Shown in pieces: positions 10,401 to 42,126 of a stretch of DNA of 50,709 nt. Under the pieces are notes generated by a model that saw nothing but the letters and a program-made list of their open reading frames with translations, had not been told where the DNA came from and made no database searches. Position 1 is the stretch's first letter, and each line of letters opens with the position of its first letter. The stretch is from the sequence record NC_105617.1; one strand, given 5' to 3'. A program made the translations under genes and the position numbers. The stretch is from a phage.

Positions 10401-10438
10401 TTCTGTAAAATCATCGTATCAACTTTTCACTATTCTCT

Positions 10439-20129: not shown

Positions 20130-21102
20130 AATACATGTTCGGAAGAACTATCAACGGAGATTGAATTGCTATGTTCCTGTTAGGCATCACGAATTGCTGT
20201 CGAGAGTAGTTGCCAACAACCTTATTTTTAGCAACTCTTACCTTGTTTCCAGCCATTCTAATCCCGTTCATCCTTACGTGGTTATATCCTCCATTCCCTT
20301 CAATAAGTGCGCCGCAGTATGATAGCTGAATCAAGCTGTTTCCTATATCCTGATCCCCCGTTCCGATGTTGATTACGCGGTTGTAAACGAATGGCTTATT
20401 TACTGTAGAAAAAGTAACCTGACCTTGCTTGTTTGTCATTGTTATACCGTTACCGCCGCGAGGTGGAGTGTTATTGAATATAACTAAATCCATAGAAACA
20501 GAGGCTGTTACGTCATCTCTCCCCCCGTATGATGCATTCCTTACCGTGATGTTTGAACCGTCAAATCCAACGCTTACATTAGGATCGTCCCATCTGGCGA
20601 AAGGTATGCCGCTTACTGGCAACTTCATGTTTCCATTTACAGTTATACGTTTTGAGTATTGGCACGTCATTAATTTTGCAACGTTTGATATAGCTGTGAA
20701 ATCAGTAGAGTTTGCAACCAGTAAGCCCTCGTTTCTTGTTCCTACTGGCAATATTTCCATGACAGTACCAGCCCATTGAGGTAGCCCGTTATATGCACTC
20801 AATGCATCATCGCCTCTAATTATCACTCCGCTATTGCCATTCCTTGATACCGTCGTCGCATAAAACGGATCTGGTATAACAAGTGTCTGGTCGAACACCT
20901 CAATAACGTCAACAGGTTTTGTGAAAACAACAACAACCTGAGATCCCGGAGTTAATGGAGTATTTACTGTTAACGTCTTGTTTGATTGCGCCCTCTGATT
21001 AAAGTTAGCGCAGAATGACGGTGCGCGAAGCCCTGCCGTTATTTGCATCGCTGGTCGTCCGTCATTGTAGTTTACATATATCCCCTCACCCATAATTACC
21101 AC
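20128..21102 (-). CDS. Hypothetical beta-rich protein; candidate receptor-binding/host-range protein
   Basis: 324 aa, Gly/Asn/Thr/Val-rich; start overlaps the stop of the upstream Cor-like gene (same strand); function inferred from context only. Confidence 0.3.
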   Translation of the reverse strand: MVIMGEGIYVNYNDGRPAMQITAGLRAPSFCANFNQRAQSNKTLTVNTPLTPGSQVVVVFTKPVDVIEVFDQTLVIPDPFYATTVSRNGNSGVIIRGDDALSAYNGLPQWAGTVMEILPVGTRNEGLLVANSTDFTAISNVAKLMTCQYSKRITVNGNMKLPVSGIPFARWDDPNVSVGFDGSNITVRNASYGGRDDVTASVSMDLVIFNNTPPRGGNGITMTNKQGQVTFSTVNKPFVYNRVINIGTGDQDIGNSLIQLSYCGALIEGNGGYNHVRMNGIRMAGNKVRVAKNKVVGNYSRQQFVMPNRNIAIQSPLIVLPNMY

Positions 21103-21326
21103 TCCTTAGTTTTGACTGAGATCTTACCGCTAAAGTTGCCCTGATTGTCGTCTGATGAAAGGCCTTTGAATCGCATGTCAACTTCTCCAGCAGGCACTTT
21201 CTTACCGTCAATGAATCGCATCATGCAAGATCCGTAAGCGTAAGTAACACAGTCGCCATTCTTAAGATTCTGAGCGCAACCAGTCAGGATGAACGCAGCG
21301 GCGATAATGGTGATTAACTTTTTCAT
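21096..21326 (-). CDS. Cor-like outer-membrane lipoprotein (superinfection exclusion candidate)
   Basis: 76 aa; signal peptide with lipobox LTGC (MKKLITIIAAAFILTGC); own sigma70-like promoter upstream; size and position next to tail genes as for cor in T1/phi80-type phages. Confidence 0.5.
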   Translation of the reverse strand: MKKLITIIAAAFILTGCAQNLKNGDCVTYAYGSCMMRFIDGKKVPAGEVDMRFKGLSSDDNQGNFSGKISVKTKEW

Positions 21327-21355
21327 TTGTATGCCCTCGTCGTTAGTGTGTTTGA

Positions 21356-21384
21356 ATTGTATGTCGCATTTACTTTTATTGCAA
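21356..21384 (-). promoter_or_regulatory. Sigma70-like promoter for cor-like operon
   Basis: Minus strand TTGCAA-17 bp-TACAAT, about 25 nt upstream of RBS GAGGG. Confidence 0.5.
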
Positions 21385-21399
21385 TAGTTCGATTACAAT

Positions 21400-21790
21400 T
21401 TTTTTTCGCGTAACAGGTGTCTATTTTTGTAACTGGAAGTGGTGTTACAAAATCGACCTCATTCGACCGCAGGTAGATATGATAAAAACTCTATATAATA
21501 TATATAGATAGATAATATTTAATTTTAGCTTTATATATATAATTATTGCTGTGTAACAGTTGTCTATCATGTAACAGGTGATTTGATTGATTCGTCAAAT
21601 TTCTATCATATATGTTCAAAATTTAATCAATCTTGGTTCTATTCATGGATATCTGTGTATTTATAAGAAAAAGCGGTTACAAGTGTTACACAATATACAC
21701 CACATAAAATCAGTGTTAATCTATTGATTCCATTGATGCTGGTTGTAACTTGAGCGATATAGACACACGATTACACACCAATTACATGTA
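21400..21790. repeat. AT-rich divergent control region with iteron-like repeats (hub 1)
   Basis: GTAACAG(G/T)TGTCTAT at 21411 and 21556, further GTAACAGGTG/GTTACAA copies, long (TA)n tracts 21490-21545. Confidence 0.5.
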
Positions 21791-21795
21791 TTCGA

Positions 21796-21823
21796 TTGAC
21801 TAAACGCTGTTAATGGCTATAAT
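21796..21823 (+). promoter_or_regulatory. Consensus-like sigma70 promoter for exonuclease-erf-ssb operon
   Basis: TTGACT-16 bp-TATAAT, 31 nt upstream of the start codon at 21855. Confidence 0.55.
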
Positions 21824-21854
21824 GGATTCATCGTAAACGAAGGAGATAAACGAA

Positions 21855-22919
21855 ATGTTCCAGGTATTCACATCAAACCAGCTTTCTAATGACGAGTATC
21901 ATAGCAATGAAGGTTGGGCGGCAGAGTATGTAAGCGGATCGAGCCTTGCAGAAATTTATCAGACCTGCCCGGCTAACTGGCGATTCAAGAAAAACGAGAC
22001 AACGAAAGCGCTGGAGTTCGGTACTCAGTCTCATACCAACTTCGAGAGTCGCGATCTGTTTACTGCAACTTATGCTCGTTGTCCGGCTCCGTCAGAGTTT
22101 AAAGATCTCATTACTTCGCAAGCTGCACTGGCGGCAAAATTAAAATCCTTTGGCCTGAAAGGTACATCCGGTAAGCAGTACCCTGACCTCATCAAAATGA
22201 TGGTTGATTGTGGTGAAGAACTCAATGTCCAATACCTGATTGAACTGATCGCAGAGGCTGAGGCGCGCGCTGAAGGAAAGCAACTCGTTGACGCTGATAA
22301 ATACGACGCCTGCATGAAGATGAGAGCCATACTTGAGCAAAACCCTGATCACGAAGCGTGCATCAACAGCGAAACGGCGCAGCGGGAGATCTCAATCTTT
22401 GGCGAGATATCCGGCGTCAAGGTTAAGGTTAGACTTGACCATCTGGACTACAAAGAGAATGTTCCAGGCCGCGTGCTGACTGGTTATGATGAGAATGGTG
22501 ATCCTGTATTTGAAGACGTGATTTTCCCTGAAGCGCTGATTATTACTGACTTCAAAACCACGATGAGCGCCAACCCGTTAGAGTTCCCGAGACTGGCATA
22601 CAATCACGGGTATTATCTTAAAATGGCCTTGCAGCATGACTTATTGCGGCGTGCAATTCAGGCTGGAGCATTTGAAGGAAACTTCCCGGAAGATATCCCG
22701 ATCGTAGTTCGATTACTGGCACAGGAGAAAAAGGAACCTTACATTGCCCTTGCTTATCGCATGACTATGGAGCAAATCAGGATCGGTCGTAACCAGTACA
22801 TTAGCGTAGTCCACACTTACAAGGCTTGCTCTGAGATGGATGTATGGCCTGGATATGCTGGCGACGCAAGCGAGATCGAACTCGAAACGCCGTCATGGGT
22901 ACGATATCAAAACAAGTAA
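21855..22919 (+). CDS. Recombination-associated exonuclease (putative)
   Basis: 354 aa, first gene after a consensus sigma70 promoter, immediately upstream of Erf-like and SSB genes; possible PD-(D/E)xK signature (IITDFKT); weak on sequence alone. Confidence 0.4.
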   Translation: MFQVFTSNQLSNDEYHSNEGWAAEYVSGSSLAEIYQTCPANWRFKKNETTKALEFGTQSHTNFESRDLFTATYARCPAPSEFKDLITSQAALAAKLKSFGLKGTSGKQYPDLIKMMVDCGEELNVQYLIELIAEAEARAEGKQLVDADKYDACMKMRAILEQNPDHEACINSETAQREISIFGEISGVKVKVRLDHLDYKENVPGRVLTGYDENGDPVFEDVIFPEALIITDFKTTMSANPLEFPRLAYNHGYYLKMALQHDLLRRAIQAGAFEGNFPEDIPIVVRLLAQEKKEPYIALAYRMTMEQIRIGRNQYISVVHTYKACSEMDVWPGYAGDASEIELETPSWVRYQNK

Positions 22920-27203: not shown

Positions 27204-27656
27204 TTAACTAAAAATGCTATTTGTCGTTCCAATATCTTCCTTCTTCACGACCCGCATAAACTTCTTGTTTTTGCAGCGCTTCTCAAGGCACTTGCCGTTC
27301 CCATCAAACTTCAGATCGAATCGCAGCCATGCGGCCCGAAATCCTTTGCAACCCTGTCGGCGATAAGCACGATGCGCCGCTTCAGCGCCTTGCCAGGAAA
27401 TCATATTTCGATCCTTCCAACCTTGAACCGTCTGGTTGCTAACTTTCAGAGCCTTTGCACAAGCCGCCGGACCACCATAATATTCAATAAGAGCATCCAA
27501 TCGCGCCCTCAGTCCTGCGCGCGTTTCTTCTTTATGGATATAAAATCCGCAGCGCTGGCGGGGCTTTTTGTCTTTACCGCGTCGTGTTCCGTTGTTACCA
27601 TTGATGTGACGCTTATCGATTTCACCAGTTGACTCTGCGATACGTTTCATATTCAT
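27204..27656 (-). CDS. Cro/YdaS-like HTH transcriptional regulator
   Basis: Start at ATG 27656 with RBS AGGAGAG; segment YYGGPAACAKALKVSNQTVQGW matches Cro/YdaS-type HTH pattern; basic N-terminal region. Confidence 0.45.
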   Translation of the reverse strand: MNMKRIAESTGEIDKRHINGNNGTRRGKDKKPRQRCGFYIHKEETRAGLRARLDALIEYYGGPAACAKALKVSNQTVQGWKDRNMISWQGAEAAHRAYRRQGCKGFRAAWLRFDLKFDGNGKCLEKRCKNKKFMRVVKKEDIGTTNSIFS

Positions 27657-27669
27657 CCTAACTCTCCTG

Positions 27670-27720
27670 TAGCACTTTTTGCTAAAAACGTTTACTGTAT
27701 GCCGTGTATTATATCGTAAA
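27670..27720 (+). promoter_or_regulatory. Box-hairpin-(-10) cassette upstream of helicase
   Basis: tagcactttttgctaaaa, 22-nt spacer, TATTAT; hairpin cgtttac/gtaaacg. Confidence 0.5.
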
Positions 27721-27750
27721 CGATACAACGATTCAAAGGATTAAATAGCC

Positions 27751-35491: not shown

Positions 35492-37060
35492 TTAACCCAT
35501 CAGTCTAGGATTGATGAAAACAATATCATCAATGCGGCAAGTGTAGTTCATCTCTTCGAGCGTGATCAGCAGGCTATCGATTCGCTCAGATACTTTCTGT
35601 TGACCGTTGAACGGAGTAACGTTCCGGCACTTTGCAACGATGCTATGAATAGGAGCGCGCCCTTTATTCTTCTTTGCGATCTCAGTGATAACATCAATCA
35701 GCTTACGAGATTCAGCCTCATCACCAGCATACCCGGCAGCGCTGGCAGACGACAGATAAGTTCTGGAAAGCTCATTGAAGATCATGATCGCTTCCTGCAT
35801 TGTTTCAAGGTCAATCTCACGGTTGGAACGGTTCGGTGATTCACCCTCCCAATTCTTGATCGTGTGGAGAACTGAAGCAATACGCAATGCGTGCTTATCG
35901 AACTTACCGAGATGACCGCGTAGCATTGAGTGCGAGTATTTGCCACCTGCGGCGAAATCCGGCTCCATTGCCTGACGTGCAAGGTTTAATTCACGCATAG
36001 CATTACGACTTACAGAAAGAACAACGTTTTCCTCCTTCATAATATTGTGCACAAGTCGATAATATTTACTCACCAATCCTCGATCGACTTCCTTGTACAG
36101 TGCATCACCATTTTCATCGCAAAGGATACGAGTACCTAAAAGAGGTTCCTCACGAACAAGAAGGAAACGCTCAGATACACCGATACCTCGTTGGCCTGCG
36201 TCCATGATACCTTTGATTGTTTCATCCTGCGCAATAACGCAGATGGAACCGACAGGGCAAAGGGACAAGTTGTTATCCTGGTTGGAACGCGCTACCTCCA
36301 TATGGTTTTTATCCCACGCCTTAAGGATAAGCTCACTATTTGATTTCTTGTCTGAACCACCATAAGTCAGGCCGAGCAATGTATTGATTGCTGTCGCCTC
36401 ATCAGAGATTACTGAGAAGTGACCTTGAACAGCCGCCACCTTCGCAAGACCTTCAGGTGTAGGATCTGATACCGCGAAAACAATATCAGCCATCTTCTTG
36501 ATCTTCTCTTCCAGTTTTTCTTTGTCTTCGTACAGCGCCGCCGTCGTGTTACCCTTCGGGTCGTTTTTAATTTCCTTCTCGACCTGACGTAGCTGACTGG
36601 TTAAGCGGATACGCTCCTTTTTTCTCTCTTCGTTCAGTCGCTGAATTTCTGCACGCATAGGCGTAATCGCTGCGGAGTTAATCGCAGATTTACCTGTTGA
36701 CGGTGGCTGGCTGATTACCATGTAAAGAGCGGTGGGTTGTTCTTCTCCGTGATATTGCACCCAAAACTTCCCGAGCATCGCGGCTGAGATGCACCCAATG
36801 AAATGAGCGTACGCAGACGAAACAGGGAACTGTACAGACTCAGCCTTTGCTTTTGCATATTCGAATACCAGGTTATCGCCACCTAGCGAAATCAGAGGGA
36901 ACTTATCGTTGCCGCTATTGATATCGATCGGATCTTGCCAAAATGAAACTGAGTCACCATAGCTGTTTTCACGAATTGCGATTGCCACCGGATTAACTCC
37001 AGTGCTATTGGCGATCTCAATAATCTGTTGGTAATTCAGTTTTGGCTTAATATTAAACAT
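35492..37060 (-). CDS. P-loop NTPase (putative replication/helicase-associated)
   Basis: Start at ATG 37060 with RBS AAGGAG; Walker A PPSTGKSA and Walker B-like VIAQDE separated by a coiled-coil insertion. Confidence 0.45.
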   Translation of the reverse strand: MFNIKPKLNYQQIIEIANSTGVNPVAIAIRENSYGDSVSFWQDPIDINSGNDKFPLISLGGDNLVFEYAKAKAESVQFPVSSAYAHFIGCISAAMLGKFWVQYHGEEQPTALYMVISQPPSTGKSAINSAAITPMRAEIQRLNEERKKERIRLTSQLRQVEKEIKNDPKGNTTAALYEDKEKLEEKIKKMADIVFAVSDPTPEGLAKVAAVQGHFSVISDEATAINTLLGLTYGGSDKKSNSELILKAWDKNHMEVARSNQDNNLSLCPVGSICVIAQDETIKGIMDAGQRGIGVSERFLLVREEPLLGTRILCDENGDALYKEVDRGLVSKYYRLVHNIMKEENVVLSVSRNAMRELNLARQAMEPDFAAGGKYSHSMLRGHLGKFDKHALRIASVLHTIKNWEGESPNRSNREIDLETMQEAIMIFNELSRTYLSSASAAGYAGDEAESRKLIDVITEIAKKNKGRAPIHSIVAKCRNVTPFNGQQKVSERIDSLLITLEEMNYTCRIDDIVFINPRLMG

Positions 37061-37089
37061 CACAATAAACTCCTTAGTTGACGGTGTAA

Positions 37090-37132
37090 ATGATACACCG
37101 CCAATGGTATACGCTTTTTGCAAAAAGTGCTA
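37090..37132 (-). promoter_or_regulatory. Box-hairpin-(-10) cassette (minus)
   Basis: Minus strand tagcactttttgcaaaaa + 22 nt + TATCAT. Confidence 0.45.
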
Positions 37133-37136
37133 TTGG

Positions 37137-37562
37137 TTATAAGTATTTGGCCTCAAAGGTTGTGCCGTCTGCGATACTAAAACCAACCTCTTCGCGAAAC
37201 AAGGTCCATCGACAACCATCTTCATCAAAGATGTAACCAGCTACGCCACCGAGAGCGCGACCGCTTTCAACCTGGTAACGCTTGCCAACTTTGAATGATT
37301 TTTTCATTGGGTTGCGATGGTCAAGCCCGGTGCACTTGAGCGTCTTTGTTTTCAACTCAGTGAACTTCGCGAAGAAGATTTCATCAGATCCGTGAATCTG
37401 TAATTCATCATGCTTTTCAAGTTTTAAATACTTGCCGCATTTTAACTTGATTTCACGAGTGCCATCATAGCGCTCTCTACCTTTGTACAGGTTGTTAACT
37501 TCAAATCCTGTGATTTTGTCTGCTGAAGTGCATTTAAGTTTGATGGATTTCATTGCGTTCAC
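37137..37562 (-). CDS. Hypothetical protein
   Basis: 141-aa ORF behind cassette with CCAATCAGGAG leader. Confidence 0.45.
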   Translation of the reverse strand: MNAMKSIKLKCTSADKITGFEVNNLYKGRERYDGTREIKLKCGKYLKLEKHDELQIHGSDEIFFAKFTELKTKTLKCTGLDHRNPMKKSFKVGKRYQVESGRALGGVAGYIFDEDGCRWTLFREEVGFSIADGTTFEAKYL

Positions 37563-41018: not shown

Positions 41019-41610
41019 TATTCCACCATCAATGGAATATCTGGAATAATTGCGATCCCGATTGATCTCGAATGATGAAATGTGATTGTTGCATGGTGTG
41101 CAACTGTTGATGTGATTGTTTCTTAGAATGCAATGATTGTGAGAGGGGGGATTTAGTGTTACCCGGTTCGCCTGGTGGTCATCTCCATTTTTAGCAAAAC
41201 GTGCTATCGATTACAATTTAACTTGTCACGACTGTAATATTTGTCTAGAATCGCACTTGTGACAAAATTACGCACTGTGACGCATCACAATAGACATATA
41301 GATATATGTATATATATAATATATATAGTGTTTTTTTTATTTATATATATAGATAATTATATTGTAATAGTTGTGTATAGCCGTCTTACATTGTCTAGCG
41401 TACTGTTGGCATATTTCTATCTGCATGTTTATATATACAGTACTTTTTTGAGGGCTATATATTTCTATAGTGACTCTAGACAGCTAGACAAATATTACAC
41501 AGCTTAAAATTGGCTTGCAGTCGTTGACAGCTCTACGTCGCTCTGTCACAATGGCAATTGTTGACATGCTATGACACCATTTACACACCAATAGACAAAG
41601 AGGGCACATT
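41019..41610. repeat. AT-rich divergent control region with repeated TGTCAC/GTGACA and TTGTCTAG/CTAGACAA motifs (hub 2)
   Basis: Repeats tgtgattgtt x2, acttgtcac/acttgtgac, ttgtctag x2, ctagaca x2, atagaca x2; (TA)n tracts 41295-41360. Confidence 0.5.
41524..41552 (+). promoter_or_regulatory. Candidate sigma70 promoter for plus-strand early block
   Basis: TTGACA-17 bp-CACAAT about 58 nt upstream of ATG 41611. Confidence 0.4.
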
Positions 41611-42126
41611 ATGAGCAATACCAATCAGGAATTAAAAATCACCGACATGATTCGACTAACCTGCGATGCAATGTACCGCGACAAAGGCATGACCGAGTTC
41701 TCTTTCGTGGCTGATGATATGGCCCTAGAAGCAGCGCGATTCTACTTTCGTGGCCAGGAGGTAAGTGATAGCGATCTTGAATCTGCCGCTGCCGGATGGG
41801 TGGACCAGAACCAGGGGGAGGTAGAGAAGCGATTCAAATCTGCTTTCATCACTCCAATCATTACCCGACACTTTTGCAAGTATGGCAAGGTGGCAAAGGT
41901 GAAGGTAGGCCGGAATGACGCGGCAATCACGATGATAACCGTTATCGTTACCGACGAAGAGGTTCCGGTGAAGAAGCGCCGCAGCCGGAAAAAAGTTAGC
42001 CTGGCCGACTGCCTTGATTCGTTTGACGTTGATGTTAGCAAGCTATCCGATAGCGAGTTAATGGTTCGTGATGTGAATGAGATCGTGCGCCAGATGAAAG
42101 CACATATTGAAAAGTGTGGACTGTAA
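41611..42126 (+). CDS. Hypothetical protein
   Basis: 171 aa, first gene of the plus-strand early block, RBS AGAGGG; basic patch KKRRSRKK. Confidence 0.5.
   Translation: MSNTNQELKITDMIRLTCDAMYRDKGMTEFSFVADDMALEAARFYFRGQEVSDSDLESAAAGWVDQNQGEVEKRFKSAFITPIITRHFCKYGKVAKVKVGRNDAAITMITVIVTDEEVPVKKRRSRKKVSLADCLDSFDVDVSKLSDSELMVRDVNEIVRQMKAHIEKCGL

Follow-up and report, generated by a model that had tools for sequence, protein, structure and literature searches.

A repeat-rich, AT-rich intergenic module upstream of recE in a T1-like phage, conserved across Drexlerviridae and present in two related copies: a candidate replication origin or early-gene control hub

The intergenic region upstream of recE in the analysed window (the whole 50,709-nt sequence NC_105617.1, a Tunavirus, or T1-like, genome) was found to hold a genuine module of 0.4 kb, R1, which is conserved throughout the family Drexlerviridae and has a related second copy, R2, in the same genome. 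As judged from sequence comparison, the module is most likely a replication origin or a control hub for early genes. Cis elements of the origin or operator type form a known class, and this one is new for a classical phage family, T1 being one of the seven classical T phages. No replication origin has been found in T1 relatives, and the control of early functions is among the open questions (PMC11447400, PMC7718038). No experimental origin or transcript map of T1 was encountered in the searchable literature, which did not include the T1 and Rtp genome papers. Likewise, neither this literature nor the inspected annotations contained a description of the module, its arrays, the IHF site or the paralogy of R1 and R2.

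R1 lies between the gene of a Cor-type lipoprotein (21096-21326, minus strand, PF24052) and that of a RecE-like PDDEXK exonuclease (21855-22919, plus strand), which is followed by erf and ssb. A divergent gap of about 0.5 kb had been described here in an earlier note made from the letters alone; the gap measures 528 bp, and every element listed in that note was recovered no more than 1-3 nt from its stated coordinates. The gap displayed 99.6% identity to the corresponding region of Escherichia phage vB_EcoS_Chapo and 90.7% to that of phage T1 (29851-30375), and as a query it matched 67 phage records, nearly all of them Tunavirus. Prior annotation of the gap consists of one or two predicted promoters, to which T1 adds a hypothetical ORF of 46 codons. 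The gene to the left varies: Tunavirus and SRT8 have cor, IME347 has a hypothetical gene and ESCO41 (locus L097, 30209-30970) an anti-repressor gene of the Rha family, with the module still in place. TLS (locus L119, 28707-29117) has no leftward gene, since tail gene J ends there in a terminator, and the module stays. R1-like sequences on plasmids or E. coli chromosomes, sought as possible satellites using the same origin, were not found. The coordinates of the features are collected in Table 1.

Table 1 Features of modules R1 and R2 in the window
Feature	Position	Strand	Remarks
Module R1, whole cor-recE intergenic region	21327..21854	.	90-93% identity over ~60 Tunavirus records
Leftward sigma-70-like promoter of the cor-like gene, TTGCAA-17-TACAAT	21356..21384	-	9/12; invariant in 15 Tunaviruses
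Single TGTAAT core beside the leftward promoter	21392..21397	-	part of TCGATTACAATTT, common to R2 41207-41219
Array A: (C/T)GTAAC, TGTCTA, TGTAAC, 9-10-bp register	21409..21433	+	direct repeat of array B
TGTAAC core facing array A	21444..21449	-	perfect 9-nt inverted repeat 21425-21433 / 21444-21452
AT core, candidate DNA-unwinding element, 73 bp	21476..21548	.	predicted melting z 5.9; invariant in Tunavirus
Array B: TGTAAC, TGTCTA, TGTAAC, starts 9 bp apart	21552..21575	+	orthologous triplets elsewhere
Small ORF, 46 codons, TTG start, T1 CPTT1_049	21587..21727	+	probably not a gene
Array C: TGTAAC, TGTAAC, TGTATA, starts 9 bp apart	21676..21699	-	mirror image of array B
IHF-consensus site AATCAATAGATTA (consensus WATCARNNNNTTR)	21717..21729	-	perfect match, between arrays C and D
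Array D: TGTAAC 21744 (+); TGTCTA 21760, TGTAAT 21770, TGTAAT 21781 (-)	21744..21786		
PrecE, TTGACT-16-TATAAT	21796..21823	+	11/12; conserved in all genera; = TLS P51
Module R2, R1 paralog, in the other large divergent gap	41188..41610	.	AT core 41296-41365

The repeat unit of R1 was found to be a 6-nt core, TGTAAC, TGTAAT or TGTCTA, which occurs on both strands. Taken together, the three cores number 13 in 21391-21840, compared with 0.62 expected per 450 bp (Poisson 2e-13), and 7 of the 22 genome copies of TGTAAC fall within 21428-21749. The composite GTAAYANKTGTNTA has five exact copies in the genome, all of them in R1 or R2; with up to one mismatch, 8 matches were obtained versus 0.62 in shuffles. 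The core cluster is confined to these two loci. Two copies of a 15-mer had been reported earlier. Both are present, GTAACAGGTGTCTAT beginning at 21410 (formerly given as 21411) and GTAACAGTTGTCTAT at 21553 (formerly 21556), but the true unit is the 6-nt core, with at least 13 copies on both strands. The additional GTTACAA-type elements are also as described, with GTTACAA at 21444 and 21676, another GTAACAGGTG at 21571 and TGTTACAC at 21684.

The cores make up four arrays, A to D, of which A to C are triplets in a 9-10-bp register. The AT core is bracketed by arrays A and B, which repeat one triplet in the same direction, and 9 bp separate the end of array D from the -35 hexamer of PrecE downstream. 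Among the cores a single tight inverted repeat was seen, with a gap of 10 bp and a centre-to-centre distance of 16 bp. Orthologues of array B in other genera are TGTTTC/TGTTCT/TGTTTC and similar triplets, while the third core of array C, TGTATA here, is TGTCTA in most Tunaviruses. Short motifs recur easily in low-complexity AT-rich DNA, and the repeats could have been taken for chance occurrences in a spacer with no function beyond its two promoters. This reading is contradicted by the Poisson value, the confinement of the composite to R1 and R2 and, above all, the conservation data given below (positions kept across genera and an invariant block of 165 bp), and can be regarded as excluded.

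According to the nearest-neighbour melting energy, a thermodynamic prediction, the stretch 21477-21546 is the second most meltable 70-mer of the genome. The two most meltable 70-mers lie in R1 (z 5.9) and R2 (z 6.2), and the next one reaches z 3.3. The window 21474-21773 has the lowest GC content of all 300-bp windows (0.263). This bears out the TA-rich, easily melted tract of the earlier note. Homologues of the AT core occur in other genera and in R2, and inside it a TATAAT at 21494-21499 is conserved in position. Of 47 loci, 25 have a perfect IHF consensus at the same place (around -138 to -142), compared with 0.9 in shuffles, and in Tunaviruses the variation of the site is restricted to the N positions. 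One site for a host protein, IHF, is therefore likely to be present in R1.

In order to define the conservation of the module, 46 loci from viral contigs were anchored on RecE (43-99% identical to that of the window). The layout of R1 upstream of recE was found in all 46 Drexlerviridae loci, with a core hexamer that differs between genera. The AT trough lies ~330-430 bp upstream of recE in all of them, the lone outlier (L049) having a mis-set recE start. A stretch of ~165 bp that contains the AT core, 21476-21640, hardly varies among 15 distinct Tunavirus sequences, whereas their flanks differ by ~10%. Counted from recE, the TGTAAC cores of the window lie at -427(+), -411(-), -303(+), -285(+), -179(-), -170(-) and -111(+), and the TGTAATC cores of SRT8 at -444(+), -410(-), -291(+), -273(+), -178(-) and -109(+); R1 of T1 has an extra site at -446(+). 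The core is TGTAAC in Tunavirus, TGTAATC in SRT8 and TGTTCT, TGTTTC or TGAACA elsewhere. Positions and orientations that stay fixed while the core changes are what would be expected of sites that co-evolve with a phage-encoded binding protein, and they speak against a ligand supplied mainly by the host. The clustering, the family-wide positions with a changing core and the IHF-type footprint argue strongly for a functional array of protein-binding sites.

It is very improbable that the block is conserved because it encodes a product, either the 46-codon ORF or a small RNA. The ORF is open in all 15 Tunaviruses, is annotated in T1 and has AGGTG 7 nt upstream of its TTG start. However, its variable columns are distributed over the codon positions as 9/17/12, the second position being the most variable, and it has neither a PHROG match nor a homolog outside Tunavirus. 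Based on this non-coding substitution pattern and the lack of homologs beyond the genus, it was rejected as a gene. On the RNA side, one possible compensatory change (TCTAT/ATAGA to TCTAC/GTAGA) was noted, but the covariation term of RNAalifold is just -0.9 and -0.5 kcal/mol for the two strands, the terminator-like hairpin at 21454-21469 is not conserved, and no Rfam match was obtained in R1, the sole one being a chance snoRNA (E 0.47) outside it. The change itself is found in a Tunavirus sub-lineage (L004, L016 and relatives), as TCTAT to TCTAC at 21639-21643 and ATAGA to GTAGA at 21692-21697. It affects two TGTCTA-like sites of opposite orientation in one evolutionary event, and may reflect either compensation within a pair or binding sites changing in concert.

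The elements of R1 given in the earlier note were confirmed, but R1 is not unique; the paralogous R2 had been missed. R2 lies in the gap 41019-41610, ~20 kb from R1, and its stretch 41296-41365 is the second most AT-rich and the most meltable of the genome. The gap holds the only other exact copies of GTAAYANKTGTNTA and 10 more cores; composite sites are located at 41234, 41364 and 41485(-), and a rightward promoter, TTGACA-17-CACAAT, at 41524-41552. R2 is colinear with R1, with an alignment score of 188.5 versus 115.6 +/- 11.7 for block shuffles. The paralogy was observed in five genomes, namely the window, SRT8, IME347, ESCO41 and TLS. Within-genome similarity (z-scores 5.3, 12.1, 14.7, 11.9 and 8.5) exceeded that of cross-genome comparisons in four of the five, and in TLS the two modules resemble each other more than R1 resembles the orthologous R1 of other phages. 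This points to concerted evolution of R1 and R2. The R2 arrays of T1 and ADB-2 are built of three tandem CGATTAACA units and further TGTTAATC cores, unlike the TGTAAC of R1. As T1 keeps TGTAAC in R1 while the core of its R2 differs, R1 and R2 need not share one ligand.

The GenBank records of T1 begin at about position 41088 of the window, and in one record nucleotides 1-2800 carry a repeat-region annotation, which places R2 just inside the terminal redundancy. This position next to the conventional T1 genome end, within the annotated 2.8-kb terminal repeat, together with that of R1 upstream of the recombination operon, would suit some other shared cis function, such as a site related to recombination or packaging, or a sink for host nucleoid proteins; the concerted evolution could then reflect gene conversion between the copies. 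Such a function is nevertheless considered unlikely. R1 has nothing that corresponds to the pac-like GATTGTTGC repeats (41080-41133) to the left of R2, and the change of core between genera speaks against a host protein as the main ligand. The repeats themselves, tandem ATGTGATTGTTGC/TGCAATGATTG units followed by a G-run, coincide with the start of the T1 records and are a candidate pac site, that is, a recognition site of the small terminase. ESCO41 and SRT8 have similar repeats bordering R2 on the left, where TLS has another repeat tract, rich in TGATT.

The two promoters on which the earlier note based its divergent arrangement were both found (Table 1), but the leftward one is dispensable. 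Its place is taken by a DR-type element (TAGCAC..TTGCTAAA) in most other genera and by a terminator in TLS. In that phage the upstream gene is co-oriented and closed by the terminator, yet array A and the AT core persist. The authors of the TLS work listed only three intergenic sigma-70 promoters, P01, P51 and P57. P01 falls in R2, P51 is PrecE in R1, and P57 precedes the HTH-primase operon, so that each module ends in an immediate-early promoter. The equivalent of P57 in the window is a good minus-strand promoter, TTGAAT-17-TATAAT, at about 27733..27705, in a short divergent gap (27651-27750) that separates the HTH-primase operon from the SF2 helicase gene and also contains a plus-strand DR element (27669-27687). 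The strong promoters of R1 point away from the AT core; a weak promoter-like site on the minus strand, TAGACA-16-AATTAT (21566..21539), points into it. TAGACA, the reverse complement of TGTCTA, matches the -35 consensus at 5/6 positions (21561-21566, 21760-21765, 41291-41296 and others), and it serves in this site and in a plus-strand one at 41291-41320 (11/12 match). Given this resemblance, some cores may double as contacts of RNA polymerase.

These promoters make it possible, if less probable than an origin, that the module controls early transcription. The arrays would then be operators or enhancer-like sites of one or more phage regulators, which would shut off or boost the immediate-early promoters with the help of IHF bending; in R1 they would target PrecE and the promoter of cor, in R2 those of the early genes, and the AT core would be architectural or UP-like. 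Of the three strong sigma-70 promoters, two lie immediately downstream of the modules, each of which ends in a strong rightward one, and this would follow no less from a purely transcriptional role. No intergenic sequence of the genome matches the sigma-70 consensus better than PrecE, array D abuts its -35 hexamer in every genus, and within Tunavirus a change of core in the R2 arrays goes along with a change of the neighbouring hypervariable first early gene, a pattern reminiscent of a repressor-operator cassette. The operator region of phage Mu provides a precedent. On the other hand, no core overlaps the -35 or -10 hexamers of the R1 promoters, and the sites reach ~400 bp upstream of PrecE. 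The AT core is invariant despite lying 130 to 290 bp from either promoter, no arrays accompany the third sigma-70 promoter, that of the HTH-primase operon, and in TLS array A and the AT core are kept with no leftward promoter to control.

The Cro-like protein had been suggested as the partner for binding assays with R1, a choice that is not favoured by the present comparison. Its Cro-fold HTH segment is identical in SRT8 (TGTAATC) and IME347 (TGTAAC), and no residue of the recognition helix cleanly separates the core classes, the search for discriminating alignment columns being confounded by phylogeny. It is true that the protein (27204-27650, minus strand) is a family core gene product made from an immediate-early sigma-70 promoter. 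Nonetheless, the arrays are improbable as its operators, also because of their geometry: the sites repeat directly at 9 bp or face each other across a 10-bp gap, and Cro-type palindromes, with half-sites about one helical turn apart, were not found among the cores. The core nearest to the -35 hexamer of PrecE lies 9 bp upstream, none is inside either promoter, and the promoter of the gene itself has no arrays nearby. The ORF listed for 27204-27728 (174 codons, TTG start) is over-extended, the conserved start of the HTH protein being MKRIAE at 27650.

A more natural target of the Cro-fold protein may be the DR element, a 21-nt sequence (aaATAGCACnnnTTGnTAAAA; ATAGCACnnnTTGnTAAAA) that is the same in all genera. 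It occurs at 27 sites of the window with up to 3 mismatches, versus 2.1 expected, for example at 10438(-), 30179(+), 41189(-), 42375(+) and 47030(+). The copies are oriented mostly along the direction of transcription and lie in early and middle gene blocks; one lies at the border of R2 (41189-41207, minus strand), and R1 too has one at its border in most genera. The function of DR is listed as an open question for T1-like phages (PMC11447400).

Other candidates for the binding protein were considered. The phages encode a primase and two helicases, and no clean signal of covariation with the core was obtained for the primase or the SF2 helicase. The region 35492-37562 (minus strand) encodes a DUF3987-family helicase of 543 aa, preceded by a conserved 141-aa protein (37137-37562) with an N-terminal half that varies between genera. 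The helicase is not supported as a candidate, as its N- and C-terminal ends do not match the core classes. Nor did the 141-aa protein covary cleanly: its N-terminal half is nearer to that of IME347 than to that of SRT8, a trend from which the protein of ESCO41 departs. When the HTH protein, the DUF3987 helicase and the 141-aa protein were searched by sequence against the PDB, nothing was found.

The remaining lead for an array-binding protein is the product of the first gene downstream of R2 (41611-42126, plus strand, in the window). The gene at this position belongs to Pfam DUF7174 in TLS, ESCO41 and SRT8, and within Tunavirus it is hypervariable, with identities from 96% down to 46%. T1 and ADB-2 carry a different type of first gene together with their different R2 arrays, an association that linkage could explain. 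The confident AlphaFold model of the 41611-42126 product gave no clear structural relative. A bolder and rather unlikely proposal is that R1 and R2 are co-evolving origin modules with immediate-early promoters and that this gene encodes a new array-binding initiator or regulator, with a specificity that is swapped with the R2 arrays as a cassette. If true, this would reveal the origin that has long been missing in T1 and, with it, a DNA-binding protein family of a new kind.

The reading preferred here, tentatively, is that R1 is one of two paralogous cis modules for the assembly of a nucleoprotein complex with a role in replication initiation. It is placed ahead of the control of early promoters, and the two roles are not mutually exclusive. 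The clustered arrays, the AT core, the IHF site, the presence at two loci, the concerted evolution, the outward promoters and the phage's own primase and helicases fit a replication origin. The persistence of the module in TLS, where no leftward gene exists, makes it independent of the leftward promoter and was counted in favour of an origin. Both alternatives of the earlier note, origin or operator, stay as the best explanations, with operators of the Cro-like protein disfavoured and the view of two 15-mers corrected. In the proposed mechanism, a phage-encoded DNA-binding protein would occupy the TGTNNN arrays A to D, which face each other across the AT core and the spacer, and host IHF would bend the DNA at its site. 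The AT core would then melt, aided by negative supercoils that RNA polymerase leaves in its wake as it departs from the outward promoters (PrecE and a leftward one in most genera), and the phage primase and helicases would load on the melted DNA.

Two features of iteron origins were found in R1, a cluster of repeated sites and an adjacent predicted unwinding element. Among the replication proteins tested, no initiator covaried convincingly with the core. Also counted against an origin were the different cores of the R1 and R2 arrays in T1 and ADB-2, where a single protein could not bind both modules, and the lack of R1-like matches on plasmids and E. coli chromosomes. The 528 bp of R1 contain no GATC (243 in the genome, one per 209 bp) and no perfect DnaA box, and those with a single mismatch overlap TGTAAC cores. 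An origin of the oriC type was discarded on the grounds that R1 has no GATC cluster or perfect DnaA box. The cumulative GC skew and the skew at four-fold sites (GC4) followed gene orientation and transcription only, with no origin signal. Over the window (1-50709), the coding strand has an excess of G in every transcription block, whichever its orientation. This suggests that origin calls from GC skew, such as that of Sfin-1 (PMC6714547), mainly mark changes of orientation. The Sfin-1 position, ~1 kb from R1, probably reflects the local change in gene orientation.

The search for the origin and the early regulation of T1 is narrowed by these results to two modules of ~400 bp with site maps at base level, and both questions become directly testable in T1-like phages. 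The annotation of the module can be transferred to the many Drexlerviridae genomes that are being sequenced for therapy. In addition, R1 and R2 mark regions to be left undisturbed when phages of this family are engineered.

Compared with known systems, R1 resembles iteron origins (lambda ori, pSC101, R6K gamma) in having repeats beside an AT tract, an IHF site inside and an adjacent promoter. It differs from them in its cores, which are 6 nt long and arranged in triplets on both strands instead of 19-22-bp iterons, and in having no recognisable initiator gene, perfect DnaA box or GATC cluster. As in oriL/oriR of SPP1 and ori/crr of P4, two distant regions share the same type of repeat and AT-rich DNA; here, in contrast, a whole module of ~400 bp is duplicated, including its terminal sigma-70 promoter, and the copies of T1 and ADB-2 use different cores. 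The combination of a promoter and an AT-rich unwinding element in a virulent phage with no classical initiator recalls the primary origin of T7 and oriF/oriG of T4. In T7 and T4 the unwinding element is downstream of the promoter, so that the transcript can prime synthesis, whereas the strong promoters of R1 face away from the AT core and only weak internal sites point in. The operator of phage Mu has many short repressor sites and an IHF site between divergent promoters. R1 is similar to its O1-O3 in combining many short sites with a candidate IHF bend between outward-facing promoters, but its sites lie off the promoters, the module is twice as long, and it contains an invariant 73-bp AT core. 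Finally, like the DR element of T1-like phages (PMC11447400), the arrays are a family-specific repeat; unlike DR, the TGTNNN arrays occur only at R1 and R2, on both strands, with a core that changes between genera.
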